Counted from the first letter of the stretch, positions 3,201 to 34,340 are shown. The stretch is 34,340 bases of DNA from Polyangiaceae bacterium (GCA_036488725.1 DASXHD010000111.1:80760-115099); one strand, 5' to 3'. Notes: generated by a model from the sequence alone, not told the origin. Numbers and translations: made by a program.

Positions 3201-6200
3201 CCGTTTGCGGCGCCGCCGCTGCTTCTATGGGCTGCGTCGCCCGCTGTCGCGTGGTGGCTCAGAAAGCCCGAGCCCGAAGAGGCGCCGACTCTCGCGCCGC
3301 TCGAGCGCAAAGAGCTCCGGCTCGTCGCGCGCCGCACCTGGCGCTTCTTCGAGACCTTCGTGACCGAGGCCGATCACTTTTTGCCGCCGGACAATTTCCA
3401 AGAAGACCCGCGCGGCGTGCTCGCGCGACGCACCTCGCCGACCAACATCGGTCTCTATTTGCTCTCGGTCGGAGCCGCGCACGACTTCGGGTTCATTTCG
3501 CTCGGCGAAGCCGTGCGCCGTTGGAACCAGACGCTCGACACGCTCGACAAGCTCACGCGCCACGAGGGACACATCCTCAACTGGTACGACACCGCGACGC
3601 TCGCGCCGCTCGAGCCGCGCTACGTCTCGACGGTCGACAGCGGGAACCTCGCCGCTTACCTCTGGACGGTGCGCGAGACGTGCGAGGATCTCGCGCGTGC
3701 GCCGTGCTCGATCGACGCGCACCTCGAAGCGGCCGACGACGCGCTCGCGCTCGCGGTCTTCGCCGAGCCGCACGACGAGATCGAGTCGCTGCGCGCCGAG
3801 CTCGCGTCGGCTCGCGCCGAGCTCACCGGCGACGCGACGCACGATCGAGAAACGCTCCGGGCTGCAGCGGCTGCGCTCGCGAGCGCGCTCGGGGAGCCGT
3901 GGGCGCAGAATGGGGCGAGCGACGTTCAGGGCGGCGTGCGCCGCGCGGCGCGCCTTCTCGCCGACGTGATCGAAGAGCGAGCTCGCCTCGACGCACCCGA
4001 AGCGCGCGAGGCGATGAACGCTTCGCTCCACGCCGTCGGCGAACGCGCGTGCGCACTCGCGGAAGCGATGTCGTTTCGATTTTTGCTCGACGAAGAGCGA
4101 AAGCTCTTCTCCATCGGCTACAACGTGACGACCGCGCGTCTCGACGCGGGGTTTTACGACTTGCTCGCGTCGGAGGCGCGTCTCGCGAGCCTCGTCGCCA
4201 TCGCCAAAGGCGAAGCGCCGCAGGAGCATTGGTTTCGGCTCGGCCGGCCGCGAGCGCGCGTCTCGCGCCGCGAAGGCCCGGTGCTCCTCTCGTGGAGCGG
4301 CTCGATGTTCGAGTTCTTGATGCCGCTCCTCGTGACCAAGAACTTCGAGGGCACGCTGCTCGATCAGACGTATCACGCCGCCGTGCAGCGCCAGATGGAC
4401 TACGGGGTCGAGCGCGCCGTGCCGTGGGGCGTGTCCGAGTCGGCGTTCAACTTGATGGACCTCGCGATGACGTATCAGTATCGCGCGTTCGGCGTGCCCG
4501 GGCTCGGGCTCAAAGCCGGCCTCGCCGAGGATCTCGTCGTCGCGCCGTACGCGACCGCGCTCGCTGCGCAAGTTCGCCCGCGCGCAGCCGCAGAAAATTT
4601 TCGGACGCTCGCGCGGATGCGCGCGCTCGGCGCGTACGGCTTCTACGACGCCGTCGATTTCACGCCGCGTCACCTGCCGCCGGGTCGCACGAGCGTCCTG
4701 GTCAAAACGTTCATGGCGCATCACCAGGGCATGACGCTCGTCGCGCTCGACAACGCGCTGAACGGCGCGCCGATGCAGCGACGCTTCCACGAGAGCACGC
4801 GGATCAAGTCGTCCGAGCTCTTGCTCCAAGAGCGCGTCCCCGCGCGCGCGCCGCTCGCGCAGATTCACGCCGCGATGCTCCGAACGCCGCAGCTCAACGA
4901 GCCCGAGCTCGACGTCGCCGAGCACGTCGGCCTCGGCGCGCACCCGACCGCGCGCCTCCATTTGCTCGGGCACGGCGAGCTCTCGAGCGCGATCACCGTG
5001 CTCGGCGAAGGTTTCACGACGTGGAAAGGCCTCGACGTGCATCGCTTCCGCGAGGACGCGGCGATCGAAGCAGGCGGGCTCTACGTTTACCTGCGCGATC
5101 GCGAGTCGCACCGCGTTTGGTCGGCCGGCTTCGCGCCGACGCGCGCCGAGCCGGACTATTACGACGTGCAGCTCGCGATCGATCGTGTCGAGATCGTCCG
5201 GCGCGACGGCGACATCGAGACGACGACCGAGATCGTCGTGTCCCCCGAGCGGCCCGCGGAGGTTCGCCGCGTGACCCTCGCGAATCACGGGTCCTCCGCG
5301 CGCGAAATCGAGCTCACGACGTACGCCGAGGTCGTGCTCGCCCCGCGCGCAGCCGACGTCGCGCATCGCGCATTCGTCGGAATGTTCGTCGAGACCGAGG
5401 CGCTCCCCGAGCAGGGCGCGCTCCTCGCGCGACGACGACCGCGCGGCGAAAGCGAAGAAGAAGTGTGGCTCGCTCAGGTCCTCTTCGCCGAGGGCGGCGC
5501 GTGGCAAGAGGGCGTCGAGTGGGAGACCTCACGCGCGAAGTTCGTCGGCCGCGGGCACACGACCGCTGATCCGATCGCGCTCGCCGCGCCGCTCGGCAAG
5601 ACGACCGGCGCCGTGCTCGACCCCGTGCTCGCGATGCGCCGAGTCGTGCGCCTCGAGCCCGGCGGACACGCGCGCATCACGCTGACGAGCGCGCTCGCGA
5701 CCTCGCGCGAGGAAGCGCTCGAGCTCGTCGCGATTTCGGCGACGCCGCACATCCTTCCGCGCGCGTTCGAGCTCGCGTGGGCCGACGCGCGCGTCGAGCT
5801 GCGGCACCTCGGCGTGAGCGCGGCGCAGTCGCATCGCTTCCAGCGGCTCCTCTCGGCGATCGTCTTTCCGCAACCTGCGCTCCGCGCGTCGATCGATCGC
5901 CGCGATTTCGACGGGCACGGCCGCGGCGGCCTCTGGGCGCATGGGATCTCGGGGGACCTGCCGATCGTCGTCGTGCGGATCGACCACCCCGACTTCGCCG
6001 ATCTCTTCGCCGAGCTGCTCCGCGCGCACGAGTTCTTCCGACTCAACGGCGTCGCGATCGATCTCGTCGCGCTGAACGAAGAGCTCCCCGGTTACATGCA
6101 GCCGCAGCAGCAGACTCTCCTCTCCGTCGTGCGCGCGAGCCCGGGCGCGGCGCGGCTCGATCAACGCGGCGGCGTCTTCGTACGGCGCATGCACGAGATG

Positions 6201-8876: not shown

Positions 8877-11721
8877 TGTCCTCGTGATCCCGCTCGACGA
8901 CGCCGTCGACGAGAAACGGTCCTGGGCTCGTGACCGGATCGCCGAGTGACGCGAAGGCGTCCGGCAAAATCACGACCTCGACGAGATCCGTTTCGTCCTC
9001 GAGCGTCACGAATTGCATTTTTCGGCGACCGCGCGTCTCGATGCGACGTGACGCGGCGACGATGCCCGCGATGCGCGCGCCTTCGCCGACGCGCTCGGCT
9101 AGCGATGCGATCGGAATCGCGCCGGCCGCGGCGGCCTCGGTGCGGAGCAATCGCATCGGATGATCCGAGACGTGCATGCCGAGAATGGCGACCTCGTTTT
9201 GGACGCGCACGAGGCCGCGATACAGATCGCCGCGCGGACCGCCCGCTGCGCGCGCGACGAAGCTCGCGAGCGACGGATCGCGTTTGCGCATCGCGAGGAG
9301 ATCCTCGTGCGCGATCGGATAACCGCGCGCGGAGAGCGGCGCGAGATCGTCGCACGCTCCCGAGAGGACGAGGGAACGGAGCTCACGGTCCGAGAGCGAC
9401 GTTCGCGCGAGCAAATCGCGCATGTCGGCGAACGGGCGCACCGCGAGGACCGCGGCGGCGTTTTTTTGGGTGAGGTGCGCGATGGCGCCCAGCCCGACGC
9501 GCACGGCGCCGTCCTCGACGACGTGGTCGATCGCCGAGCGCGCGACGTCGGGCCGCAAGATGGTGACGCCGGACCGCGCGAAGTCGGCCGCGATCGTCCG
9601 TAGCGGATACGCGCCGCCGTAATGATTGAGCACCGCGCACGCGAACGCCGCAGGCCGATGGACTTTCGCCCAGACCGATCGCCACGCGAGCTCGGCGTAG
9701 CTCGTCGCGTGCGCGCGACTGAACGAATAGGCCGCAAAACGCGCCAAATCCGGCCACGCGGCTTCGGCGCCCTCGATGACACGCCCGCGAAAATCGCGTT
9801 CGATCTCGGCGAGCGCCGCGGGATCTTCGTCAGCGCGAACGATCGCGGCGCGCATCGCGTCGGCCTCTTCGAGCGAGCCGCGCGTGAGCGTCGCGATGGC
9901 GCTGAGAATGTCCTCCTCGAAGAGGAGCATGCCGTGCGTGCGCGCGAGAAGCGGTCCGAGCGCCGGGTGCGGTGGCGACGCGGGCTCCTCGCCGTGCGCG
10001 CGCCGAACGAACGCGGCCTTCGCGTCACCCGAGCTCGGCCCCGGCCGCACGAGCGCGAGCGCGGTCGTCACGTCGTCTGCATCGCGAATCGGAAGCTTGC
10101 GCAAGACGGAGCGCGTCGCCGCGGTCTCGACCTGGAAGCAGCCGATGGTTTGCCCTCGCTCGAGCGCGGCGCGCGTCGCCGCGTCGTCGCCGGGCGCGGA
10201 GGAGACGCCGCACGCTTCGAGCGCGGCGAGCGCACGGTTGCCGAGCAAGTCGATCTTCAAGAGCCCGAGCTTTCCGATCGAGCGAAGATCGTACTGCGTG
10301 ACGAGGACGCCTTTCGGCGCGCGCTCGAGCGGCGTGTACGCGGTCAGCGGTCCGTCGCCGATCACGACGCCGCCCGGATGCACGGAGACGTGCTGGAGCT
10401 TGCCGACCGTGCGCTCGATGAGACCGACGTGCGGTTGCACGGCGTACGGCAGCGACGCGGTCGGAGGCGGCGCCTCCTCGTCCGTCATGCGCGCGCAAAA
10501 TCGGTCGACGTCCTCGCGGCGCATGCCGAGCGCCTTGAGGCCTTCGCGATATGCGGCGCGGCGGCGGAAAGTCTGATGCGTCGACAGCATCGCGACGCGA
10601 TCGCGGCCGAAGCGACGAAAGACCCAATCGACGAGTTCGTCGCGACGGTTCGAGGGCAAGTCGAGGTCGATGTCCGGCGGCTCCAGCCGCCCGGCGTGAA
10701 CGAATCGTTCGAAATGGAGACCGTGCACGATCGGGTCGATCGACGTGATGCCGAGCGCGAAGCAGACGAGCGAGCTCGCCGCCGAGCCTCGGCCTGCGAT
10801 CGCGATGCCCGCGGCGCGCGCGTGATCGGTGATCTCACGAACGACCCAAAAATACGGGGCGAGATGGAGGATGCGGATTGTCTCGAGCTCGCGCGCGAGG
10901 CGCGTTTCGTAGGCGACGCCGCGGCCGCAGATCGCCTCGCGACACGCGGCAGCGAGCTTTTCGTCGGCGTCGGGTACGTCCGGGACGACGCGTGTCGTCT
11001 CGCACAAGTCGAGCGTGCATGCTTCGGCGACCGCGCGTGACTCGGCGAGCGCATCGGGGGCGTCGCGAAAAAGATCGGCCCACGGCGCGAGGAGGGCGCG
11101 CTCGTGCGATTCGGCGCCCGTCGCGTCGCGAACGCGCATCCGGCGGCGAATCGCAAAGAGAAGTCGATGAAGATCGGCGTCGTCGGGCGAGAGCATGACC
11201 GCGTCGACGTCGGCGACCGCGCGCACACGCGACGGCGGTTCTGCGCCGGCTCGCGCGAGCAAAAATCGAACGTCGTCCGGCGCGACGCCGCGCGCGAGGA
11301 GCGACTCGAGCGTCTCGACGTCGTCGCTCAGATAAAAAATACCGCGCGGCTCGTCCTCGAGACACTCGAGCGGATCGCCCGTCTCGCCCGCCACCGTTCG
11401 ACGCCGCGTGACGATGCGGCAGAGGCTCTCGTAACCGGCGCGATCGCGCGCGAGCAACACGAGCCGCCCGCGTTTTTCGCCGACGGCGTGCGGCCCGAAC
11501 CCGCGACGAAGCTCCACGCCGGTGATCGCGCGAATCCCCGCGTCTCGCGCGGCGTGATGAAGCTCGACCTGCGCGTACAAATTTTCGAGGTCGGTCAGCG
11601 CGACCGCACCGCAGCCGAGCCGAGCCGCCGCACGCACGAGCTCGCGCGGCGACGCGGTCCCGTACCCTGCGGAGCGATCGCTCTTCGTGTGCAGGGGTAC
11701 GAACGTTGCGTCCTTCGTCAC
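8806..11721 (-). CDS. dnaE2: Error-prone DNA polymerase III alpha-like (DnaE2/ImuC-type C-family polymerase), 971 aa
   Basis: N-terminal degenerate PHP domain (FVPLHTKSDRSAGYG...ALTDLENLY). DnaE palm/finger motifs GLLKIDLLGNRALAAL and IGCFQVETAATRSVL. GTG start at 11719-11721. Size is below replicative DnaE and fits DnaE2. Confidence 0.8.
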   Translation of the reverse strand: MTKDATFVPLHTKSDRSAGYGTASPRELVRAAARLGCGAVALTDLENLYAQVELHHAARDAGIRAITGVELRRGFGPHAVGEKRGRLVLLARDRAGYESLCRIVTRRRTVAGETGDPLECLEDEPRGIFYLSDDVETLESLLARGVAPDDVRFLLARAGAEPPSRVRAVADVDAVMLSPDDADLHRLLFAIRRRMRVRDATGAESHERALLAPWADLFRDAPDALAESRAVAEACTLDLCETTRVVPDVPDADEKLAAACREAICGRGVAYETRLARELETIRILHLAPYFWVVREITDHARAAGIAIAGRGSAASSLVCFALGITSIDPIVHGLHFERFVHAGRLEPPDIDLDLPSNRRDELVDWVFRRFGRDRVAMLSTHQTFRRRAAYREGLKALGMRREDVDRFCARMTDEEAPPPTASLPYAVQPHVGLIERTVGKLQHVSVHPGGVVIGDGPLTAYTPLERAPKGVLVTQYDLRSIGKLGLLKIDLLGNRALAALEACGVSSAPGDDAATRAALERGQTIGCFQVETAATRSVLRKLPIRDADDVTTALALVRPGPSSGDAKAAFVRRAHGEEPASPPHPALGPLLARTHGMLLFEEDILSAIATLTRGSLEEADAMRAAIVRADEDPAALAEIERDFRGRVIEGAEAAWPDLARFAAYSFSRAHATSYAELAWRSVWAKVHRPAAFACAVLNHYGGAYPLRTIAADFARSGVTILRPDVARSAIDHVVEDGAVRVGLGAIAHLTQKNAAAVLAVRPFADMRDLLARTSLSDRELRSLVLSGACDDLAPLSARGYPIAHEDLLAMRKRDPSLASFVARAAGGPRGDLYRGLVRVQNEVAILGMHVSDHPMRLLRTEAAAAGAIPIASLAERVGEGARIAGIVAASRRIETRGRRKMQFVTLEDETDLVEVVILPDAFASLGDPVTSPGPFLVDGVVERDHEDTTLIVRHVVPFHRRAHPYRQPSP

Positions 11722-12380
11722 CGATGGCTCGGCAACCTAAGACCGAAATGAGCGCGCTGCCATTTCTGCCGAAAAAACGAGTGACGCTCGCGACGCTCGC
11801 CGACGCAGCGCGAGCGTGCCGCGGATGCCCGCTCTACGCGCGCGCGACGCAGACCGTGTTCGGCGCGGGCCCGGCGAGCGCGCGCGTGATCCTCGTCGGC
11901 GAGCAGCCGGGCAACGACGAAGATTTGAGAGGCGCGCCGTTCGTCGGCCCGGCCGGACGCGTGCTCGACAAGGCGCTCGCCGCGGCGCACATCGATCGAC
12001 GCGAGACCTACGTCACCAACGTCGTGAAGCACTTCAACTGGGTCGCGACGACCGGCAGCCGGCGCCTGCACAAGAAACCGTCGTCGCGCGAAGTCTCGGC
12101 GTGCTTGCCGTGGCTCGAAGAAGAAATCGTTCTGATCAAACCAGACGTCGTCGTTCTTCTCGGCGCGACCGCGGCGCAAGCCATCCTCGGGCGAGATTTC
12201 CGCGTCACGAAAGACCGCGGCAAGCTCCTCGCGACGCGCTTTGGAGCACGTGCGCTCGCGACGGTGCACCCCTCGTCGATCCTTCGGCAGCGAACGCACG
12301 AAGACCGCGCGCGCGAGACGGAGCGCTTCGTCGCGGACCTCGCCGTCGTCGCCAAGCTCATTCACCGCAGAGCGGCGTGA
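11706..12380 (+). CDS. udgX: UdgX-like family-4 uracil-DNA glycosylase (covalent uracil-DNA binding type)
   Basis: GEQPGNDEDLRGAPFVGPAGRVLDKAL (family-4 motif A). VHPSSILRQ (motif B). An R-loop insertion VVKHFNWVATTGSRRLHKKPSSREVSACLPW closely parallels the UdgX KRRIH loop, with the His retained. TTG at 11706; in-frame ATGs at 11724 and 11748 are more likely starts. Confidence 0.8.
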   Translation: MRPSSPMARQPKTEMSALPFLPKKRVTLATLADAARACRGCPLYARATQTVFGAGPASARVILVGEQPGNDEDLRGAPFVGPAGRVLDKALAAAHIDRRETYVTNVVKHFNWVATTGSRRLHKKPSSREVSACLPWLEEEIVLIKPDVVVLLGATAAQAILGRDFRVTKDRGKLLATRFGARALATVHPSSILRQRTHEDRARETERFVADLAVVAKLIHRRAA

Positions 12381-12381
12381 A

Positions 12382-13392
12382 TCAAATCTCGGCGCTGTGC
12401 AGCCACTTCGGGTGACTCGCGGTGCTGTCGTATTTGTCGGCGGTCTTGAAGAGCTCGTACTTTCCGCTGAGCGCCGCGTCGCGCGTGCGCCGCAGGAGAT
12501 CGGCGATCTGATCCTCGTCGAGCGGCTTGAAGTTTTGCGCGACGTGGATCGCCTGGTTCAAGATTGGCATCGAGTCGCACCCGGTGATGACGACGTTGGT
12601 CGGCAAACTGAGTGCATACTGCAAACATTCGACGGCGGTCACGGTCTTGCTCTTCAGGAGATCGCCCGAGCCGATCGGCTTCATGCTGCAGATCCCGAGG
12701 CCCTTGCGGCGCGCGACCGGCAGCACGTTGTGCTGAAAGCTCCGGAAGTGCGCGTCCATCACGTTGAGCGGCATCATGATCGTGTCGAACGTGAAGCCGT
12801 GTTGTTCGGCGACGGCGAGCATCTCGAGGTGGATGCTCGGATCTTTGTGGCCGGTGAAGCCGATGAACCGGAGCTTGCCGGCTTTGCGCGCTTCGAGGAG
12901 ACCTTCGATCGCGCCGCCGGGCGCGAAGACCGCGGTCGGATCGCTCGAGCGAATGACCTCGTGGATCTGCACGAGATCGATGTGATCGGTGCGAAGGCGC
13001 TGGAGCGATTGCTCGAGCTGCTTTTGCGCGGAGTCTTTGTCGCGACCGTCGACCTTGGTCATCAGGAACGCGCGCTGGCGCCAGCCGCCCTCGAGCGCCT
13101 TGCCCATGCGTCGCTCGCTGTCGCCGCCGTGGTAGTCCCAGCTGTTGTCCATGAACGTCACACCGTGATCGATTGCGCTGCGCACGATGCGGATGGCCTC
13201 GTCCTCGGTGTGCGTCTCGCCGAGGTGCGAGCCGCCGATGCCGATGCGCGAGATGGTCTCGCCGGTGCGGCCGAGCACGTTGGTCGGAATGCCGCCCTTC
13301 ACGGGCGCGGACGTGAGGCTCGGCGGCGGATCGTTCTTCGCGCAAGCCGCGAGCACGACCGTTCCTGCGATGAAGCTTCGACGCGAAATCAT
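12382..13392 (-). CDS. Aldo/keto reductase family oxidoreductase, Tat-signal lipoprotein
   Basis: AKR fold signature (GIGGSHLGE..., IRIVRSAIDHGVTFMDNSWDYHGG, HIDLVQIHE). N-terminus MISRRSFIAGTVVLAACA has a twin-arginine motif plus an LAAC lipobox. The track ORF extends to 13539, but an ATG at 13392 gives a proper signal peptide. Confidence 0.75.
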   Translation of the reverse strand: MISRRSFIAGTVVLAACAKNDPPPSLTSAPVKGGIPTNVLGRTGETISRIGIGGSHLGETHTEDEAIRIVRSAIDHGVTFMDNSWDYHGGDSERRMGKALEGGWRQRAFLMTKVDGRDKDSAQKQLEQSLQRLRTDHIDLVQIHEVIRSSDPTAVFAPGGAIEGLLEARKAGKLRFIGFTGHKDPSIHLEMLAVAEQHGFTFDTIMMPLNVMDAHFRSFQHNVLPVARRKGLGICSMKPIGSGDLLKSKTVTAVECLQYALSLPTNVVITGCDSMPILNQAIHVAQNFKPLDEDQIADLLRRTRDAALSGKYELFKTADKYDSTASHPKWLHSAEI

Positions 13393-26778: not shown

Positions 26779-26855
26779 GCGCCACTAGCTCAGCTGGATA
26801 GAGCGACGGCCTCCGGAGCCGTAGGTCAGAGGTTCGAATCCTCTGTGGCGCGCCA
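26779..26855 (+). tRNA. tRNA-Arg (anticodon CCG)
   Basis: Manual cloverleaf fold. Acceptor gcgccac/gtggcgc. D arm gctc-agctggata-gagc. Anticodon stem acggc/gccgt with loop ctCCGga. T arm agagg-ttcgaat-cctct. Discriminator g plus encoded CCA. 77 nt. Confidence 0.9.
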
Positions 26856-28185
26856 CCCTGGACGACGGGATTTCCGCGGTGTCCTCCACCGCGCCGGCGC
26901 GCACTGAGTCGGCAACTTCGGACGTCTGCACCACTATTGCACCACCCCGATGGTCGGCGACCGCCAGCGCGGTGACCGCTGGCTCCGCGATGCGCTCCTC
27001 CGGCTCGGGCGGGTTGAAGCGGAGCCTATTTACTTCGCTGCGTAAGTAGTCGGGCGCGAGGTGCCCGTACACGTCGACGGTAATGCGCGGGTCGCGATGG
27101 CGGAGGATGCGTTGGACGGCGGCGGCGTTCGCGCCCGCTTGCATCAAGAGCGACGCGGTCGTGTGCCGGAGGTCGTGGAACCGAATCGGTCGCACCTTCG
27201 CGATGGGCCAGAGCTTCGGGTTCTTCTTGCCGTGCTGCGTCGGGCAGCGGCGGACGCCGCCGTCGGCCGCCATCTCGGAGTAGCCGCACTTGCGGCACCG
27301 ATGCTCGTAGCCCGTGACGATGCCGGCATGCTTCATCGCGCGCCGCAAGACCTCCTCGAGCGGCGTGTGCGAGCTGCGCATGCTGCCGTCGTCGTCCGGG
27401 AACACGTAGTCGCTCGAGACCGGCGAGGCCGCGAGCGCCGCCTCGAGGTACGGCACGAGCTCGTCGGCGATCGGCACCACGGCCGCATGTCCGCTCTTCG
27501 TCGTGTCGCGGTCGTACGACCGTGAGACCATGATGAGGCGCGCGTCGAGGTCGACGTCGAGCTTCTTCAGCCCGATGATCTCGCCGCGGCGCATCCCGCT
27601 GTAGATGGCGGTCGCCAGCATCCCGCGCCACTTCGGCGGCGTGTGCGTCAGCACCGGCAGCACCTCGTGCGCCCGAAGGTACTGAGGCGTCCGCTGCGGC
27701 ACCTTGCGGCGCTCCACGTCTTGGACGGGGTTCGGGCCGCCGAAGCGGCCCGCCTTGCGCGCTTTCGAGAAGGCGCTGAAGAGGAAGCGGCGGAGGTGAT
27801 TCAAGGACTGCGGCCCGAGCTTGCCCGCCTTCGCTTGCAAGAACTCCTCGATCGTGCCGGGCGTGATCTCCGCGAGTCGGAGCTTCGCGAGGCCCGAGTC
27901 GACGATGTGGAGATTGACCGTCGCTTTGTTGCGCTCGTGTGAGGTGCTCTTGCTCGAGTACGTCTCGAGCCACCAGTCCATGAGCGCGTGCAGCGTGCCG
28001 CCGCCGTCCTCGTCAGGCATCGCCTCGAGGCCGAGCCGCTGACGTTCGGCGCGCCGCTCGAGATCGTCAGCGAGACGGCGCGCTTCTGTTTTCGTGCGCG
28101 CCGTCGTCGGGCGCATCACGCGCTTGCCGCGGTGGTCCTTGTACTTGACGTACCAGCGCGGCCCACGTTGGAAGACTGATGCCAT
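26785..28185 (-). CDS. int: Tyrosine-type site-specific integrase (phage/ICE integrase)
   Basis: ATG at 28183-28185 preceded by a GGAGAA Shine-Dalgarno. N-terminal SAM-like/arm-binding region. Catalytic region HDLRHTTASLL...RILRHRDPRITVDVYGHL (R..H-R-H..Y). The ORF has no stop until 26785, so it reads antisense through the whole tRNA-Arg gene. Confidence 0.85.
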   Translation of the reverse strand: MASVFQRGPRWYVKYKDHRGKRVMRPTTARTKTEARRLADDLERRAERQRLGLEAMPDEDGGGTLHALMDWWLETYSSKSTSHERNKATVNLHIVDSGLAKLRLAEITPGTIEEFLQAKAGKLGPQSLNHLRRFLFSAFSKARKAGRFGGPNPVQDVERRKVPQRTPQYLRAHEVLPVLTHTPPKWRGMLATAIYSGMRRGEIIGLKKLDVDLDARLIMVSRSYDRDTTKSGHAAVVPIADELVPYLEAALAASPVSSDYVFPDDDGSMRSSHTPLEEVLRRAMKHAGIVTGYEHRCRKCGYSEMAADGGVRRCPTQHGKKNPKLWPIAKVRPIRFHDLRHTTASLLMQAGANAAAVQRILRHRDPRITVDVYGHLAPDYLRSEVNRLRFNPPEPEERIAEPAVTALAVADHRGGAIVVQTSEVADSVRAGAVEDTAEIPSSRVARHRGFEPLTYGSGGRRSIQLS

Positions 28186-28207
28186 TGGTTCTCCTCGAAA
28201 TGGAGCA

Positions 28208-28414
28208 CTACTTGCGCTTGAGCGCCACGACCGTCGCGCGCGGCGAGGACTTCTCGCCGCGCGCGAACGCCTCGATGGCCCCACGCTCGAAGCGCAGCAA
28301 GCCGCCCACGCGAAGCGCAGGCAAGTCGCCGACTTCGGCCCGGTGGTACACCCAAGACCGCGAGACCCTGAGAAATGTGGCGACGTCCGCTGCTGTCCAG
28401 AGCGATTCGCTCAC
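28208..28414 (-). CDS. xis: Excisionase / AlpA-like HTH DNA-binding protein
   Basis: 68-aa ORF MSESLWTAADVATFLRVSRSWVYHRAEVGDLPALRVGG. This is the classic excisionase/MerR-like winged helix. It lies immediately upstream of int on the same strand. Confidence 0.7.
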   Translation of the reverse strand: MSESLWTAADVATFLRVSRSWVYHRAEVGDLPALRVGGLLRFERGAIEAFARGEKSSPRATVVALKRK

Positions 28415-29046
28415 GGCTTCACCAGCGAGCGGCGTATCGACGGGAACGGGAAGACTAGGTCGCCGATTGCGCTGAACGCTTTGGTGAAGCGCTCGTGTTC
28501 TTCGAGGTCACCGGTCGCGGGCATGAAGATGATCACGTTGGCGTGCGTCGGCGACGACATCGGCACGAGCGTCCCGTGTTGGTCAACGAAGAACTTGGTG
28601 CGTTCCGCCGGCACGCACATCGGGAAGTTGAGGGCTGAAGGCAGGCTTCCGTCGCCTTGTGACAGGCGCAGGATCTCCAAGGTAAATCCAACGAAGACGA
28701 CGGACGCCGCCCTGAACGCCAGCCACTCGCGAACCGCCTTCCAATAGAACATCTGCGCAAGGCTCCGGTTGCCCACTTTGCCTCCCGGCGGATTCACGAA
28801 GACGCGACCCAACCACGGACGCGTCAGCCCATCGTCCTCGGCGGTGAGGAAGGTCTTCGCGCCAACGACCGTGTTGGCACGGGCGGAACTCGCCGGATCA
28901 AAATCAATGTCGCCCATCACCGCCTTCGTGGCGCCGATGATCAGCGGGGGCGTGATATACTCGGAGCTCTTGCTGCTGTGCTGAGGAATTCGCACTGCGC
29001 GATCAGCGGCCGCCGCGTCCTTCGCGTGCATGCGACGAGCCATCAC
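28411..29046 (-). CDS. Phage Dam-family (PF05869-like) N6-adenine methyltransferase homolog with NPPG in place of the NPPY catalytic motif
   Basis: EYITPPLIIGATKAVMGDIDFDPAS...TAEDDGLTRPWLGRVFVNPPGG matches the characteristic W/Y-TP...G-IDLDP...DGL..W.G.vFvNPPY pattern of phage Dam proteins. The DNA confirms aat ccg ccg gga (N-P-P-G). GTG/ATG start at 29046/29043 overlaps the upstream stop. Confidence 0.55.
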   Translation of the reverse strand: MMARRMHAKDAAAADRAVRIPQHSSKSSEYITPPLIIGATKAVMGDIDFDPASSARANTVVGAKTFLTAEDDGLTRPWLGRVFVNPPGGKVGNRSLAQMFYWKAVREWLAFRAASVVFVGFTLEILRLSQGDGSLPSALNFPMCVPAERTKFFVDQHGTLVPMSSPTHANVIIFMPATGDLEEHERFTKAFSAIGDLVFPFPSIRRSLVKP

Positions 29047-29252
29047 GATGCTCCCCCGCTCTGGAACAGTCCTTTCAACGGGACTCCGACATCGGCGAGA
29101 TCGCGCTCGATGCGACTGCGCTCGTCCGGCGTGATCGCGACGCGCTCGGCGATGATTCTGCTCAAGCGCGTTTCCGAAATAGCGAGCGTGCGAGCGGCGA
29201 GATAGATAGTGCGGTGCTTCTTTTGAAGCGCCATCTTGAGATTGAAAAGCAT
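29043..29252 (-). CDS. Small helix-turn-helix (Cro/XRE-like) regulator
   Basis: ATG at 29250-29252 preceded by a strong SD (GGAGGTcacATG). MLFNLKMALQKKHRTIYLAARTLAISETRLSRIIAER has an HTH signature. The track ORF extends to a TTG at 29270. Confidence 0.5.
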   Translation of the reverse strand: MLFNLKMALQKKHRTIYLAARTLAISETRLSRIIAERVAITPDERSRIERDLADVGVPLKGLFQSGGAS

Positions 29253-29323
29253 GTGACCTCCGGGCCGCAATTGGTTACGGCGGCCTCCTAGGTCACAGTC
29301 GCGCAGCTCCGCACAAGCGCGCT

Positions 29324-30619
29324 CTACGTGATCATTTCAAGTTTCTTTTGCCCGTGGTCGAGCATAGCGATTTCGAGGATCGTCCTCGCGTGGCTCTCAC
29401 TGATGCGTACCGGTCCACCAGCTCGGCGTTTGGCCCGAACACCAAGGCGCAACTCAGCTTCCTTCAACAGCGCGGGCACATCGTCGTCGCGCCGCAGTAA
29501 CCCATCAGCCACTGCTTCTTCGACAAAGTCGGCGAGACATGTCCACGCCTCCCGCGTCGACGTGCCCTTGAGCTGCTCTCGGACCCGCACCCTCCAGTCG
29601 GCGTCCAGCAAGTAGCCGCTCCCGTCACGTTCGGGCGCGCAACCGGCGAGCTCGATGGCATCGTTCAGCGCGTTGCGCACCGTCGTTTCCGCGAAGTCGA
29701 GTTGTCGCGCGACCTCGGCGATCCTCCAGCCTTCGCGCACCGGCCGTTGGCGCGCCACCAAACCGTTGCACGGTTCTGACTGACCTTCTTCATTGTAGTC
29801 GGGCTCGATGCCATGGTCTTCGGACACCCGCACCGTCACCGATGTGAGGCCCCGCTTACGGAGTTTCGTCTTGCGATCGTTGGCGAAGACCTTCGCGACG
29901 TATTGGGCGGGAATGCCGGTCTCGCTTGGAACGTACGCGCGCAGAATGTCTTGTTTCCGATCCAGTGTTGTCGCGACAAGGTTTTGTTGCTCGTCCTCGA
30001 TGCTTTCGCGCGTCTTCTTTGCAACCGCTCGGAGCGCACATTCGAACGTCTTCCACTCGCGCGCGTGCTCGGCGGTGTCGTTCGCGCTCGCCAGCAATAC
30101 GTCGGGGCGAAGCGCACGGAACATTGCCCATGCTTTGTTCCGAAACATGAAGGAGCGTTCACACAAGCCCTCCACGTGCTCGACCACCCTAACGGCATCA
30201 ATGAAACGGACCGCGGGCCACATTGCGGCCACGAGCTCGGCCTCGCAGTCAAAGACCTGCCGAAGCTCGTCTTCAGCCGGAGCGGGGTCAATAACGCCGC
30301 AGCGACTCGTGCGAAAGAAGTCCACCATTCTATCGATGAGGCGCTTGCCTTTGTGGAATGCCGTCATTCCGGTCGTCACGTCGGGAGTAAAGCCTGGCAT
30401 GTCCAGCTGCAGAAACACGATGTACGGTTCGGCGTAGGTTCCCTTCGCGAAGTCCAGAATCTCGGACCTGATCTCATCATCGAGCGGACCGAAAACCGCG
30501 TGCTCGTCCTCGGCCTGCTGGCACGCGATGTATTCCGCCAACGCGTCCGGAGTAGCGGTCCTCTGTAGATTTACGCCGGCTTGACGCGTCCGCTCTTCTA
30601 GGTCTTTCGAACTAATCAC
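29324..30619 (-). CDS. Hypothetical island protein (~430 aa) with C-terminal sigma-70 region-4-like HTH
   Basis: Long non-Arg-rich ORF. HTH near the C-terminus (GWRIAEVARQLDFAETTVRNALNDAIEL). No catalytic motif recognised. The 5' end is uncertain. The GTG at 30617-30619 is the first in-frame start that does not overlap the divergent ParB-like gene. Track ORF runs to 31168. Confidence 0.45.
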   Translation of the reverse strand: MISSKDLEERTRQAGVNLQRTATPDALAEYIACQQAEDEHAVFGPLDDEIRSEILDFAKGTYAEPYIVFLQLDMPGFTPDVTTGMTAFHKGKRLIDRMVDFFRTSRCGVIDPAPAEDELRQVFDCEAELVAAMWPAVRFIDAVRVVEHVEGLCERSFMFRNKAWAMFRALRPDVLLASANDTAEHAREWKTFECALRAVAKKTRESIEDEQQNLVATTLDRKQDILRAYVPSETGIPAQYVAKVFANDRKTKLRKRGLTSVTVRVSEDHGIEPDYNEEGQSEPCNGLVARQRPVREGWRIAEVARQLDFAETTVRNALNDAIELAGCAPERDGSGYLLDADWRVRVREQLKGTSTREAWTCLADFVEEAVADGLLRRDDDVPALLKEAELRLGVRAKRRAGGPVRISESHARTILEIAMLDHGQKKLEMIT

Positions 30620-30751
30620 CGGCAACAGGTTTCGGCCGGGGCCCGTGGGTGTCAAGGCGAACTTTTTTTCCCGGCGCGTCGCTTGTGCGGACCGGCGTGA
30701 CTGTTGTCCATGCGCCGACGCCTTTAAGTTTCGGCGGCGCACGGAGACCCA
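30620..30751. promoter_or_regulatory. Divergent intergenic region on the island, presumed bidirectional promoter/operator
   Basis: ~130-bp non-coding gap between the head-to-head unknown gene (minus) and ParB-like gene (plus). Contains a TTGACA hexamer and a T7 run (gaactttttttcc). No -10 element could be assigned confidently. Confidence 0.3.
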
Positions 30752-32770
30752 ATGCCCACCCCGAAAGACGAGACGAACGCGAAGATGACGAGCACGGTGC
30801 CCGCATTCGACGGAAGCGCCACAGCGAACGATCAGCCCACCGCCCCACCGTCGCAACTCGGCAGTCGCCTGCGACGCGGGAAGCGAAGCGCGACGCTGTT
30901 GGCTCCGCTCGACTCGGCCGCAGAAGACAGCGGCGCCGAGAAGAACCTGGAAGTCGCCATCGGAGCGCCCGCGAGTCCCGTGTTCGGCGCCGCGCTCGCG
31001 CTGCGCGGGACGAAGACGCAGACGCTCGAGACGAAGAAGACGACAACGCCCGAGGTCACCACTGCACCCGATGACATCCCGGTCGGGCGCATCGACGAAG
31101 CCGAGGAGCTCGTCGTCACGCCGCCGCTGCAGCCGGCGGTGCTCACCGAACCCACGACGTGCCCGCACCCGCTACTGCAGCGTCTCGGCGACCACAGGTG
31201 CGCCCTCTGCGGCTGCATCGTGACGGCGCCGCCCACGTCGTCGGTCGCTCCGGCACCGAACGGCATCATTCCGGAAAGCGAGTGGAGCGACGAGCAGCGC
31301 GCTCAGGACAAGAAGATCGCCGAGATGAAGGCGCGCATCGAGCACGAGATGGGCCTTGAGCCGACTCCGCCCTTGCCACACCTCCCGGCCGTCGCCGTAA
31401 CCGAAGTCAGCTTGGGCGCACCGGCAACGCGTGGGGACCCCCCCGCGGCGATCGCCGAGCCGCCGCCCGCGAAGGCCGATGACCGGTCGCTCGCCGACAT
31501 CATCTTCTCCTGCGAACATCCGGACCATCTTCGCAGTGCGACGGGATGCGCGGCGTGCGGCGCGGGCCTGAGACTCATCGAGTCCATCGACGCCGGCAAG
31601 AAGCTCAACGCGCAGCTGGCCGCGCAGGCCGCCGCAACCGCGCAGCAGGCGCCGGACAAAACACTGCCCGACGTGAGCGCAGAAGCGGGTACAGCTTCCC
31701 CGGACGTCGGCGGGTCGGTGCCGGGGACGGCGGAGAGCTCGCCGTCGGTCGAGCGCGGCGGCGACAACGACGTCGCCGGCGATCACCCAGGGCAGCTCGC
31801 GCCCGATCGCGGCGAGAACGGCGAGCCGCTGTACCACGCCGCGTGCCTCGCGTTCCCCGAGCCGACCGAGCCCGAGATGGCCGAGCTCATCGAGAGCGTG
31901 CGCGTCCACGGGGTCCAGCACGAGGGCGTGCTCTTCAAGGGCAAGGTGCTCGACGGTCGCAGCCGCGAGATTGCGTCGCGTCGAGCAGGCGTGCGGATGC
32001 GCTGGCGCGAACTGCCCGCGGGGATCGACCCCATCGACTACGTCACGGCTGCGAACGTGACCCGTCGAAATCTCACGCCTGGTCAGCTCGCGATGGCGGC
32101 AGCAGCGCTCGTGCCTCTCATCACGGAAGCGGCGCGCGAGCGTCAGCGCGCCGGTCTCGGCTCGGATGGCAGCGGAGGCCGCGGGAAGAAAACCCTGGCG
32201 CCAGATGGCGCCAAGGTTCGTGCGCCGAAGGCCGCGGGCATCGCCGCGGCGAAAATCGGCGCCAAGGCGCGCAACGTCGAGCGCGCCTTGGTCGTCGAGG
32301 AGCGCGGAGCGCCGGAGACCGTGGCTGCCGCGCGGGCGGGCACGCTGCCGCTAGCAACCGCCGAGATGCTCGCGCAGCTCCCGGCGCAGGAGCAGACCGA
32401 GGCAATCGCCGCGGGGCCCGACGCCGTTCGCGCAGCGGCGGCGAAGTTCCGCGGGAATCTGAAAAACCGCACCAATCGCAAGACGAAAGCGGACCGCTCC
32501 CCAGTTACCTACGAAGACGCGGCGGCGAAGAACGCCAAGACCGCGGAGACTCGTGCGAACGACTCGAACGATTCAGTCGTCGCGTTTACCCCGGGGGACA
32601 AACTCGCCGGAATGCAGGACGTGCTGTGGGCCCTGCACGCGATCGAGGCCTTCTTGCGTGCCTCGGGCGCATTCGAGCCATCGTCGCAGCTCGAGCGCGT
32701 GCGCAGCGACCTGCACGACCTCGACGAACTGCTCGCGAAGCTGATCACTCCGGCGGCGGTGACACGATGA
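30752..32770 (+). CDS. ParB/Srx-like nuclease-domain + HTH protein with ~380-aa low-complexity N-terminal extension carrying two Cys/His knuckles
   Basis: ATG with an SD (GGAGacccaATG). ParB N-domain MAELIESVRVHGVQHEGVLFKGKVLDGRSREIASRRAGV (GxRR-like arginine motif). ParB-type HTH IAAAKIGAKARNVERALVVEE...LPLATAEMLAQL. N-terminus is acidic and Ala/Pro-rich, with repeats TCPHPLLQRLGDHRCALCGC and SCEHPDHLRSATGCAACGAG. Confidence 0.7.
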   Translation: MPTPKDETNAKMTSTVPAFDGSATANDQPTAPPSQLGSRLRRGKRSATLLAPLDSAAEDSGAEKNLEVAIGAPASPVFGAALALRGTKTQTLETKKTTTPEVTTAPDDIPVGRIDEAEELVVTPPLQPAVLTEPTTCPHPLLQRLGDHRCALCGCIVTAPPTSSVAPAPNGIIPESEWSDEQRAQDKKIAEMKARIEHEMGLEPTPPLPHLPAVAVTEVSLGAPATRGDPPAAIAEPPPAKADDRSLADIIFSCEHPDHLRSATGCAACGAGLRLIESIDAGKKLNAQLAAQAAATAQQAPDKTLPDVSAEAGTASPDVGGSVPGTAESSPSVERGGDNDVAGDHPGQLAPDRGENGEPLYHAACLAFPEPTEPEMAELIESVRVHGVQHEGVLFKGKVLDGRSREIASRRAGVRMRWRELPAGIDPIDYVTAANVTRRNLTPGQLAMAAAALVPLITEAARERQRAGLGSDGSGGRGKKTLAPDGAKVRAPKAAGIAAAKIGAKARNVERALVVEERGAPETVAAARAGTLPLATAEMLAQLPAQEQTEAIAAGPDAVRAAAAKFRGNLKNRTNRKTKADRSPVTYEDAAAKNAKTAETRANDSNDSVVAFTPGDKLAGMQDVLWALHAIEAFLRASGAFEPSSQLERVRSDLHDLDELLAKLITPAAVTR

Positions 32771-33753
32771 GCGCCTCGGTTCTTGGCGTCGGGCGTCCGA
32801 ATCCCATGGAGCGCGTCGGGCCCTGGATCAAACACTTTCCAGGCGGCAAAGGGCACAACAACTGCCCGCGCTTCTACTACGTGCGCGATGGATTCGGATG
32901 CACATACAACTGCCATTATTGCTATTTGCGTCGCTTCGAGAATCTTCATCCGGATGGCGCGGAGTTCGATCCGAAGTTTGAGCGGCTCTACTCCGAGGTA
33001 AAGGCGTGGATGAAGCGGCCGGGCCGCAACGCATTGCTCCTCGGTGAAGTTACCGACGGGTGGGGCTGGACGCATATCGAAAAAATTCTCGAACGCAACC
33101 TGCAGCTCATCGTGATGTTTCGCGCGCAGCAGTCGCACACGCTAATCACGTTGACGAAGGACAGCCACGTGATGCAGCGTCTCGCCGGTATCACGCCGAC
33201 GGACCGCGTGGTCCTTTCGTGGAGTTTGAACCCGCCGGCGATCGCGGACTTGTACGAGATGGGCGCGAAGCAAGCAGAGGCGCGCATCGCAGACGCGGCA
33301 CGCGCCCGCGAGGCAGGCTGGCGCGTTCGCGTTCGGATCGATCCGATGATTCCGATTGCCGAGTGGCAACGACATTACGCGGAACTCGCCAATGTCGTGC
33401 GCGACCGAGTTCGACCCGAGCTCGTGACGTGTGGGTCGTGGCGTCCGCGCCCCCAGGACCCAATGATGAAGTCCGCGCCGCCGGAGATGACGGCGCATTT
33501 GGAGAAGGGGCCTGACGGACGCCTGCGCCTGAAGAACCGGATCGAGATGTACGAGACGGTCTGGGCGATTCTTGGCTCCGACATCACGCGCAGCCTCTGC
33601 AAGGAGGAACTCGACGTCGAAGCTTGGCTCTACACCGAGCACGGTGAGGTGATGCAGGCGTGCAACTGCCTCGGCGAGCCCGTCGTCCCAGTCAGCCGCC
33701 TGCACGTCAGTGCGGCGCTCCAGGCGCGCGCGCGTGTGGAGGTGCGCCGATGA
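32767..33753 (+). CDS. Radical SAM enzyme of the SplB / DNA-repair-photolyase-like (COG1533) type
   Basis: CX3CX2C cluster in the context GFGCTYNCHYCYL, typical of the spore-photoproduct-lyase family (C..C.YCY). Start ATG overlaps the ParB-like stop (ATGA). It is in frame with an upstream Arg-rich artefact (track ORF 31546-33753). Confidence 0.7.
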   Translation: MSASVLGVGRPNPMERVGPWIKHFPGGKGHNNCPRFYYVRDGFGCTYNCHYCYLRRFENLHPDGAEFDPKFERLYSEVKAWMKRPGRNALLLGEVTDGWGWTHIEKILERNLQLIVMFRAQQSHTLITLTKDSHVMQRLAGITPTDRVVLSWSLNPPAIADLYEMGAKQAEARIADAARAREAGWRVRVRIDPMIPIAEWQRHYAELANVVRDRVRPELVTCGSWRPRPQDPMMKSAPPEMTAHLEKGPDGRLRLKNRIEMYETVWAILGSDITRSLCKEELDVEAWLYTEHGEVMQACNCLGEPVVPVSRLHVSAALQARARVEVRR

Positions 33754-33878
33754 AGAGCATCACCGAGATCATTTTCGGAGCCTTCCCCGGCCGTCGCCTC
33801 GAAGCCGCCGTGCACGAAGTTGGGCACTTTGCTCTCGCCGTCGCCGGCGGCGGCCTTCCAAGGCCCGCTTGGCCATGA
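33750..33878 (+). CDS. Small ORF with HExxH zinc-peptidase-like motif (42 aa), possibly the 5' part of a frameshifted or split gene
   Basis: MKSITEIIFGAFPGRRLEAAVHEVGHFALAV contains HEVGH. ATG overlaps the rSAM stop (ATGA). It ends with a TGA that itself overlaps the ATG of the next ORF in the -1 frame. Confidence 0.3.
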   Translation: MKSITEIIFGAFPGRRLEAAVHEVGHFALAVAGGGLPRPAWP

Positions 33879-34228
33879 ACATCGCCATCGCCGAAGACAT
33901 CGGTGGTTACACCGCCGAGGCTCGGCACACGGCTAGGACTGTCGAGGATCTACTCGAGCGGACCGACGACGACGACGGAGACTTGTTGCACGCCGTCGGC
34001 TGGGCCTCCTCGTACCTCGGCGAGCCGATTCAAGACGAGGACTGGCGCGCCGCGTCGGTCGACGCGAGCAAGCTCGTTCACCGAAATGCTCGGGACGCGG
34101 ACGCCTACCTCGCGGAGCATTGGCCGACGGTAATGCGCATGGCCCGCGCGCTCGATACCCGCGGCTCGCTCACGGAGCGAAGCATCGCTGCCTGGGCTTC
34201 CCGCTTCTCCGCCTTGGACCATCGCTGA
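33876..34228 (+). CDS. Hypothetical acidic protein (117 aa), last gene of the coupled island operon within the window
   Basis: MNIAIAEDIGGYTAEARHTARTVEDLLERTDDDDGD... The ORF starts at an ATG overlapping the previous stop. Track ORF is 33710-34228. No family assignable. Confidence 0.3.
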
Positions 34229-34340
34229 CGCTGAGCCGCCGGAGAGGAGCACGGAGGCAAGGGCGACGGGAAGCGGGCACGAGCCGACGGAGCGACTGCC
34301 GTTGTAGAGGAACGTCGGCGACGGCTGCTGGGGGAGCTGC

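Follow-up and report, generated by a model that had tools for sequence, protein, structure and literature searches.

Spore photoproduct lyase (SPL, SplB) is the sole characterised member of COG1533, a large family of radical S-adenosylmethionine (SAM) enzymes, and the roles of the members in non-sporulating organisms are obscure. ParB-fold proteins, for their part, have only lately been recognised as activators of DNA-modifying enzymes. Proteins of the ParB superfamily accompany the post-replicative DNA-modifying enzymes of phosphorothioation (DndB) and of the 7-deazaguanine pathway (DpdB). Some phage thymine dioxygenases need a cognate ParB homologue in order to act on double-stranded DNA (dsDNA) (2026; PMC13229309), and the orphan ParB folds that mobile elements carry frequently occur as fusions to DNA methyltransferases (PMC12704722). 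Here we describe an integrative element of a Polyangiaceae bacterium in which a ParB-like protein (gene A) is encoded directly ahead of a SPL-like radical-SAM enzyme (gene B). The element lies in a stretch of 34,340 nucleotides (GCA_036488725.1, DASXHD010000111.1:80760-115099), which we call the window; all positions are counted from its first letter, and the operon headed by gene A occupies positions 30752-34228. The original prediction for this operon, a candidate DNA-targeting system, stated that no characterised system is known to pair a ParB-like protein with a SPL-like enzyme. We also found no such defence-system model and no paper that pairs ParB with radical SAM or SPL, either directly or under the SPL-like or TIGR04470/TIGR04471 names, and the survey of orphan ParB proteins makes no mention of radical SAM (PMC12704722).

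A ParB-fold protein and a divergent SPL-family enzyme

The operon has the following features, all on the plus strand.

30752-32770: gene A, 672 amino acids (aa), with an acidic low-complexity N-terminal region, a ParB-like N domain, a helix-turn-helix (HTH) and a C-terminal helical tail
31832-32161: ParB/Srx-like N domain of A, aa ~361-470, from profiles, the AlphaFold2 (AF2) model and Foldseek
32231-32491: HTH DNA-binding region of A, aa ~494-580, from the profile match to Spo0J and the AF2 model
32579-32767: C-terminal tail of A (aa ~610-672), a pair of long helices with an invariant W..L
32767-33753: gene B, divergent SPL-family radical-SAM enzyme, 328 aa, from PF20903 and the AF2 fold
32863, 33598, 33661 and 33667: codons of the extra cysteines C33, C278, C299 and C301 of B
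33750-34228: remnant of one ~200-aa HExxH (HEVGH) gene, split into a 42-aa open reading frame (ORF C, 33750-33878) and a 117-aa ORF (ORF D, 33875-34228)

The four ORFs and the ATGA start/stop overlaps at all three junctions (A/B, B/C and C/D) are present as predicted, and A and B are translationally coupled. They do not represent four separate genes, however: C and D are one broken gene, so that there are three ORF units.

The G+C content at third codon positions (GC3) is 0.77-1.0 along the full 672-aa frame of A, so the long low-complexity N-terminal half of the protein is probably translated. Residues 1-345 are acidic, of low complexity and rich in Ala and Pro. This region also contains two copies of a CxHP-x(8-9)-CxxCG motif, at residues 137-154 and 254-270 (nucleotides 31160-31213 and 31511-31561), which are possibly zinc knuckles judging from their sequence; the motif is missing from the ParB-like partners at the related loci L004, L007 and L009. 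A word-indexed search with full-length A returned only the protein itself, from the same Polyangiaceae metagenome-assembled genome (MAG), its low-complexity words having crowded out other candidates. When residues 346-672 were used instead, in an exhaustive HMMER search, 12,048 representative clusters matched, 2,729 of them at E≤1e-10; the best 150 of the 12,048 cover residues ~361-585 only.

The assignment of A to the ParB fold comes from profiles and from the predicted structure. Among the A segment and its 25 best matches, 24 of 26 sequences carry the label phrog_4715 and 20 of 26 the label phrog_12047, both of which stand for a ParB-like partition protein/nuclease; Pfam ParB_N reached E~1e-3 on four of the same 26. 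A profile of the A family (A4) matched Spo0J in the PDB (1vz0) at E=2e-6, with both the N domain and the HTH aligned, and Noc and ParB at E~1e-4. A second profile (A3), built from the alignment of A-type partners, matched Noc at E=2e-4. The AF2 model of the A segment has a pLDDT of 85 overall and >90 in the ParB N domain, and the HTH region is helical with high pLDDT; the two tail helices are at query positions 269-292 and 300-320. When the model was compared with the PDB by Foldseek, ranks 1-35 were all ParB, Spo0J, Noc, KorB or PadC, the best at E=2e-5. The predicted ParB/Srx protein with an HTH is thus borne out at the level of the fold, but the protein is invisible to the domain libraries: A matched no Pfam (E≤0.1), NCBIfam or PADLOC model, and stayed below the cut-off of Pfam ParB_N (PF02195).

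Residues 346-590 of A have a pI of 9.8. At aa 400, the position of the GERR arginine patch (GERRxRA, with the catalytic Glu) of ParB proteins, A has LDGRSR, and RRNLT follows at aa 438. The patch is replaced by LDGH[SHN]R in L004, L007 and L009, and the family consensus is DGRNR. Because GERR is not conserved, CTP hydrolysis by A should not be assumed. A ParA-like ORF was also looked for; none is present in that part of the window, up to 34340, which belongs to the element, nor do L004, L007, L008 and L009 have one next to the pair. With no ParA in these regions and GERR unconserved, we reject an ordinary plasmid ParB with a cognate ParA, a possibility that the original prediction had marked for checking.

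Gene B scores 38.1 bits against the Pfam SPL family PF20903 (cut-off 27; E=1.1e-9; residues 43-217), and 19 of the 20 relatives already bear this label. The three cluster cysteines, C45-x3-C49-x2-C52 (nucleotides 32899-32922), lie in the context CHYCY, which aligns to the GCMGHCHYCY segment of 4FHG; none of C45, C49, Y51, C52 and Y53 varies among 17 aligned relatives. A phmmer search of the PDB with B matched SPL only. The AF2 model of B has a pLDDT of 89, and its top six Foldseek matches in the PDB are all SPL (E=4e-12 to 2e-10, TM ~0.60; best match, 4fhf), the next radical-SAM folds (PFL-AE, NifB) following at E~6e-5. B is therefore a COG1533-type radical-SAM enzyme with a C..C.YCY cluster, as predicted, and falls in the SPL family by both hidden Markov models and fold.

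It is a genuine but distant branch of that family, not an orthodox SPL. The NCBIfam models compared (SPL proper, SPL-family lyase, radical SAM mobile pair B, PA0069 and Rv2578c) give 12-39 bits, all far short of cut-offs of 360-437 bits; the SPL equivalog TIGR04070 scores 39 bits against a cut-off of 400, and TIGR04470 (radical SAM mobile pair protein B) 34.5 bits against 410. Proteins of the B clade are basic (pI ~9). Outside the radical-SAM motif, four further cysteines, C33, C278, C299 and C301, are retained by every one of the 17 relatives, even at 26% identity; the last three have no counterpart in SPL. Together the four may make up an auxiliary Fe-S or Zn site, or C33, which lies ~12 residues ahead of the first cluster cysteine, could serve as an alternative H-atom donor. 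We take the S76C variant of SPL (4RH0, among the Foldseek matches) to place an alternative donor near the region of C33, a correspondence that does not come from an alignment. The chemistry of B is probably related to that of SPL without being identical to it.

Recurrence of the pair and its possible function

The clade of B is small. It comprises 20 proteins among 5.8 billion clusters, and in GTDB one genome among 185,579 species bears a relative. Isolated phage genomes and plasmids gave one marginal match each (~21% identity), and the viral structures of BFVD contain no close counterpart. We defined close lineages as those with ≥50% identity and a readable upstream gene, of which there are nine, the window included. 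In five of them (the window, L013, L004-6, L007 and L008-10) the upstream gene overlaps the start of the radical-SAM gene by 4-17 nucleotides and encodes a conserved tail of ~60 aa. The upstream protein is ParB-like with an HTH, and carries the motifs LDG[RH]xR and RRNL[TS], in four of the nine (the window, L004-6, L007 and L008-10). The co-location is thus not peculiar to this genome, but recurs with the same type of overlap in three independent lineages besides the window.

The tail, with its invariant Trp..Leu, is conserved in L004, L007 and L009. It was encountered solely in proteins encoded by a gene that overlaps a radical-SAM gene of this clade. The upstream protein of L013 is unrelated to A except in its last 64 residues, which are 59% identical, while the radical-SAM enzymes are 78% identical: the N-terminal 390 residues of the upstream protein have been replaced, and the tail and the radical-SAM gene have been kept together. 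None of the best 150 of the 12,048 ParB-like family matches reaches the A-type tail. Given that L013 retains only the tail and that these ParB-like relatives lack it, the tail, rather than ParB as such, appears to be the element specific to the radical-SAM partner, and is likely the interface between A and B. The five tail-bearing lineages form one radical-SAM subclade in a neighbour-joining tree, and have retained the arrangement while their radical-SAM enzymes diverged to ~58% identity.

Genes downstream of the radical-SAM gene are variable. In L008 a MerR-like gene and then a D5-type primase-helicase follow, so the pair appears to head an early/replication operon there. More distant relatives of B (26-36% identity) are mostly found on viral contigs. 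Their neighbours include N6/N4 DNA methylases (L014, L016), an overlapping HTH_17 gene (L014) and HerA-like ATPases; in L017 the neighbour is a canonical ParB_N+HTH_ParB protein (E=2e-22), and one distant relative, P0014 (Logan contig L011), has a weak N-terminal HTH fusion.

Some further observations concern these loci. Small ORFs overlapping the viral relatives in L017-L019 were considered as free-standing versions of the A tail and rejected (hhalign probability, 0.1%). Viral contigs with a distant relative also encode a 766-aa protein with an intein (Intein_splicing, E=2e-26) and a Cas12f1/TnpB-like gene two genes upstream of the radical-SAM gene; the coordinates of these observations are L014 5805-8105 and L017 7579-8934. 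In L003, a Polyangiales MAG, the radical-SAM gene has no overlapping partner. A 610-aa gene that weakly resembles ParB_N/HTH_ParB is found two genes ahead of it in divergent orientation, and a tyrosine integrase ~700 nucleotides downstream of it, beside host flagellar-type export genes (FliO/FliP); the coordinates at this locus are 6182-8014 on the minus strand and 11721-13025 on the plus strand.

What might the pair do? We tentatively favour, at somewhat less than an even chance, a ParB-guided radical-SAM enzyme that acts on DNA, by modification or by lesion reversal, in the service of the element. A and B would then be the two parts of a DNA-directed module carried by an integrative mobile element. 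As an orphan ParB-fold protein with an HTH, A would bind element or host DNA, and its C-terminal two-helix tail would recruit or activate B. With a 5'-deoxyadenosyl radical, B would remove a hydrogen atom from a nucleotide in the DNA, the most plausible target being a pyrimidine, as it is for SPL. The outcome would be a post-replicative change to the DNA, either a modification or the reversal of a lesion. The place of the pair at the head of a rightward early/replication operon would suit the marking or protection of element DNA, and an epigenetic or anti-restriction role. A narrower version of this proposal is distinctly unlikely: the tail of the ParB-fold protein would deliver the SPL-type enzyme onto duplex DNA, where B would install a novel, radical-derived base modification that protects or marks the element. 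A C-C-linked or a reduced pyrimidine would be examples of such a modification. If this version were true, B would be the first radical-SAM enzyme that, guided by ParB, writes a modification into polymeric DNA rather than repairing one.

Several points weigh against a ParB-guided, DNA-acting enzyme. In four of the nine close lineages (L003, L022, L026 and L027) the gene directly upstream of the radical-SAM gene encodes no ParB-like protein and no tail, but something unrelated, such as a RecD-like helicase; a B-type enzyme can therefore work without such a partner, and the obligate co-function that the overlaps had been taken to signify is too strong a reading. The tail could merely be a dimerisation domain. 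In the HMMER alignment, the position of the H-atom donor of SPL, Cys140 (mutated in the C140S and C140A structures), is taken by Glu94 of B (LGEVTD). The C-terminal third of SPL contacts the lesion; the corresponding third of B cannot be aligned to SPL and carries the cysteine triad. Lacking both Cys140 and an alignable C-terminal third, B may differ from SPL in its chemistry and even in its substrate. A CTP-clamp mechanism for A is doubtful, judging from its GERR region. Neither PADLOC nor PHROGs provides a functional label for the pair. Finally, we infer every functional step, namely the physical docking of A and B, DNA as the substrate and the biological role, from sequence and predicted structure; the defence, anti-restriction or DNA-modification role put forward in the original prediction is likewise something that we infer rather than observe.

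An unlikely alternative, though one to be taken seriously, is that B serves as fitness cargo of the element, in the form of a DNA-repair lyase directed at spore-photoproduct-like or other pyrimidine dimers caused by UV or desiccation, while A is a regulator or partition-type protein of the element and only incidentally its neighbour. Polyangiaceae are myxobacteria, a group that forms desiccation-resistant myxospores, which would give such cargo a use. SPL is the only characterised relative of B, the four partnerless lineages fit an enzyme that acts alone, and COG1533 splB-type genes occur in SOS/LexA regulons of non-sporulating phyla (PMC4951493, PMC8565304). A repair lyase is harder to reconcile with the missing Cys140 donor, the score of 39 bits against the 400-bit cut-off of the SPL equivalog, the four extra invariant cysteines and the unalignable C-terminal third. 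The clade is also confined to mobile elements and extremely rare, unlike a housekeeping repair enzyme, and the radical-SAM-specific tail of A would be left unexplained.

We consider it very unlikely that A and B are an anti-phage or anti-plasmid defence system, with A sensing or loading onto foreign DNA and B damaging or marking it by radical chemistry. Integrative elements often carry defence cargo, and the two genes do lie on such an element near an integrase and a methyltransferase homologue; moreover, the partners and neighbours differ from locus to locus, as those of conflict systems typically do. However, PADLOC-DB v2 matched none of six ORFs at E≤0.1, the pair has no nuclease or abortive-infection effector linked to it, and in relatives the pair heads an operon leading into a MerR-like gene and a D5-type primase-helicase, a core early-gene place rather than a cargo hotspot.

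It is improbable, too, that B acts on a protein (the Trp-containing tail of A, for instance), on RNA or on a small molecule, or that it just consumes SAM. The tail with its invariant Trp is encoded directly before B, the four extra cysteines could hold an auxiliary cluster of the kind found in radical-SAM enzymes that modify peptides, and peptide maturases are among the weaker fold matches of B. Against this, SPL is by far the best fold, SPASM/twitch-type peptide maturases being about eight orders of magnitude worse in E-value; the neighbours of the distant relatives are consistently DNA-acting proteins; and relatives without a tail partner still keep all invariant residues. Equally hard to credit is the absence of any functional link, with gene order and overlaps reflecting compact mobile-element operons and the shared descent of one element lineage: 4-nucleotide overlaps are common in compact GC-rich operons and, because all ParB-linked loci fall in one radical-SAM subclade, their recurrence may amount to a single evolutionary event, yet L013 exchanged the N-terminal 390 residues of its upstream protein and kept the tail with the radical-SAM gene, and the arrangement has persisted through divergence to ~58% identity.

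Our preferred reading thus remains a ParB-guided enzyme acting on DNA, in a pair that is less complete and less obligate than originally proposed.

The disrupted HExxH gene and the surrounding element

A query joining ORFs C and D matched P0023, a protein of 202 aa, with 58% identity across both ORFs and 38 extra residues between them. P0023 comes from contig L025, in which the C-terminus of the radical-SAM enzyme is 88% identical to B and its gene overlaps an intact HExxH gene by 4 nucleotides. At the DNA level, the blocks of homology touch at ~33859 in the window and are 117 nucleotides apart in L025; relative to L025, the window is without ~118 nucleotides at ~33859, which shifts the frame. 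By this comparison, C and D are fragments of a single gene disrupted by a frame-shifting deletion of ~118 nucleotides. Since they are one disrupted gene, the third ATGA overlap is a by-product of the deletion, and the 42-aa HEVGH ORF and the 117-aa acidic ORF, originally listed as operon members in their own right, are the halves of one decayed gene.

Nor is the gene a recurring partner of the radical-SAM enzyme, as a neighbourhood survey might have revealed: it is present in the window and in the closest relative, L025, and at none of the other radical-SAM loci. The HExxH gene is a lineage-specific accessory that has been inactivated in this genome; it is not a core component and has no part in the mechanism proposed above. 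C and D have no match in Pfam, NCBIfam or PADLOC, and the intact homologue P0023 has none in Pfam, PHROGs or the PDB, the HEVGH motif being its sole recognisable feature. A resemblance to FtsH/M41-like zinc metallopeptidases was considered and is not claimed, as P0023 matches no peptidase family or structure. In two other close relatives the radical-SAM gene is immediately followed by a small, Cys-rich ORF resembling a zinc ribbon (L026 2442-2621 and L023 842-1249); these ORFs are unrelated to the HExxH gene.

Upstream of the operon, the window contains the following features of the element.

26779-29270: left arm of the integrative element, with tRNA-Arg(CCG), a tyrosine integrase, an HTH_17 excisionase-like gene, a Dam-like methyltransferase homologue and a 75-aa ORF
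26779-26855: tRNA-Arg(CCG), attachment site
30542-30751: divergent intergenic region of ~210 nucleotides, presumed promoter/operator, between a leftward 405-aa gene and gene A

The tyrosine integrase matches Pfam Phage_integrase at E=1.7e-22 and the excisionase-like gene HTH_17 at E=4e-9. The methyltransferase homologue matches phrog_111 (DNA methyltransferase) at E=5e-13; its score against Pfam Dam, 20.8 bits, is under the cut-off of that model. The operon does therefore lie on a tRNA-integrated element and beside a methyltransferase homologue, as had been proposed. The integrase ORF (minus strand, 26785-28284) runs antisense through nearly the whole tRNA-Arg(CCG) gene (26785-26855), and its final ~24 codons correspond to the tRNA in reverse complement, an overlap that suggests an attachment site inside the 3' end of int. 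The G+C content at 28501-31500, the central part of the element, is 0.62-0.65, compared with ~0.69 in the flanking chromosome, which fits a foreign origin. No attR, in the form of a repeat of the tRNA 3' end, was found within the window, so the right end of the element is beyond the contig. All three assemblies of the locus (the NCBI MAG contig, and those of JGI and Logan, listed as L001 and L002) end ~110 nucleotides past ORF D. The last stretch of the window, 34229-34340, is thus probably followed closely by a repeat or by a junction that varies between strains.

According to the GC3 profile, the leftward 405-aa gene most likely starts near 30541. An inverted repeat has arms at 29295-29319 and 30680-30704 (25 nucleotides, 88% complementary). 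Its 12-mer core, CGCTTGTGCGGA, has exactly two copies in the window, at 29308-29319 on the minus strand and at 30680-30691 on the plus strand; both copies are intergenic, and they stand in inverted orientation in the two intergenic regions flanking the leftward gene. With one mismatch allowed, at least two matches to the core were obtained in 11 of 100 shuffles. The repeat pair could be an operator or a binding site of the ParB-like protein.

Comparison with known systems

DndB and DpdB share with A their membership of the ParB superfamily and their association with a DNA-modifying enzyme, but the catalytic partners, DndACDE and DpdA/DpdC, differ from B. No Dnd or Dpd component was matched among the ORFs in PADLOC or NCBIfam.

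Among characterised enzymes, B is most like the SplB of Geobacillus thermodenitrificans (4FHC/4FHF), with which it shares PF20903 and a CxxxCxxC motif whose third Cys is flanked by Tyr residues; SplB is also its best fold match (TM 0.60). The two are ~17% identical, and B has a Glu at the position of Cys140, four additional invariant cysteines and a C-terminal third that cannot be aligned. Unlike SplB, B is found on mobile elements and is coupled to a ParB-like protein. TIGR04470, TIGR03886, the PA0069 family and the Rv2578c family (all COG1533) are, like B, members of the SPL superfamily without an assigned function, and TIGR04470 is by its name paired on mobile DNA. These models give B 12-35 bits against cut-offs of 360-437, and the neighbours of B (A, C and D) match no NCBIfam model.

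Residues 361-585 of A belong with the orphan ParB-CTPase-fold proteins (PMC12704722; phrog_4715, phrog_12047), which also lack a ParA. A differs from this family in its acidic N-terminal extension of 345 aa, the two CxHP..CxxCG motifs, the radical-SAM-linked tail and DGRSR in place of GERR.

For the pair as a whole, the ParB-activated phage thymine dioxygenases (PMC13229309) offer the best analogy. 5mYOX176 and ParB176 are a DNA-base-modifying enzyme and a cognate orphan ParB homologue encoded together on mobile DNA, as are B, which would likewise act on DNA, and A. ParB176 activates its enzyme on dsDNA, the pairing is specific to the cognate partners, and the NTPase residues, which are doubtful in A, are dispensable. 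The likeness is one of organisation only: 5mYOX176 is an Fe(II)/2-oxoglutarate-dependent 5-methylpyrimidine dioxygenase and B a radical-SAM enzyme, and A and B are known from their sequences. ParBs of the ParB176 type have also kept the nucleotide-binding and C-terminal domains and have no DNA-binding domain. A, by contrast, possesses an HTH, and its tail is a different one, specific to its radical-SAM partner. The locus is thus a variation on the emerging theme of a ParB partner with a DNA-modifying enzyme, built on an uncharacterised branch of the SPL family. It is a tractable two-gene system for approaching the function of SPL relatives, with the conserved tail as a concrete candidate interface, and a ParB-linked SPL-like enzyme would add radical chemistry on DNA to an activator principle so far seen with dioxygenases and methyltransferases.

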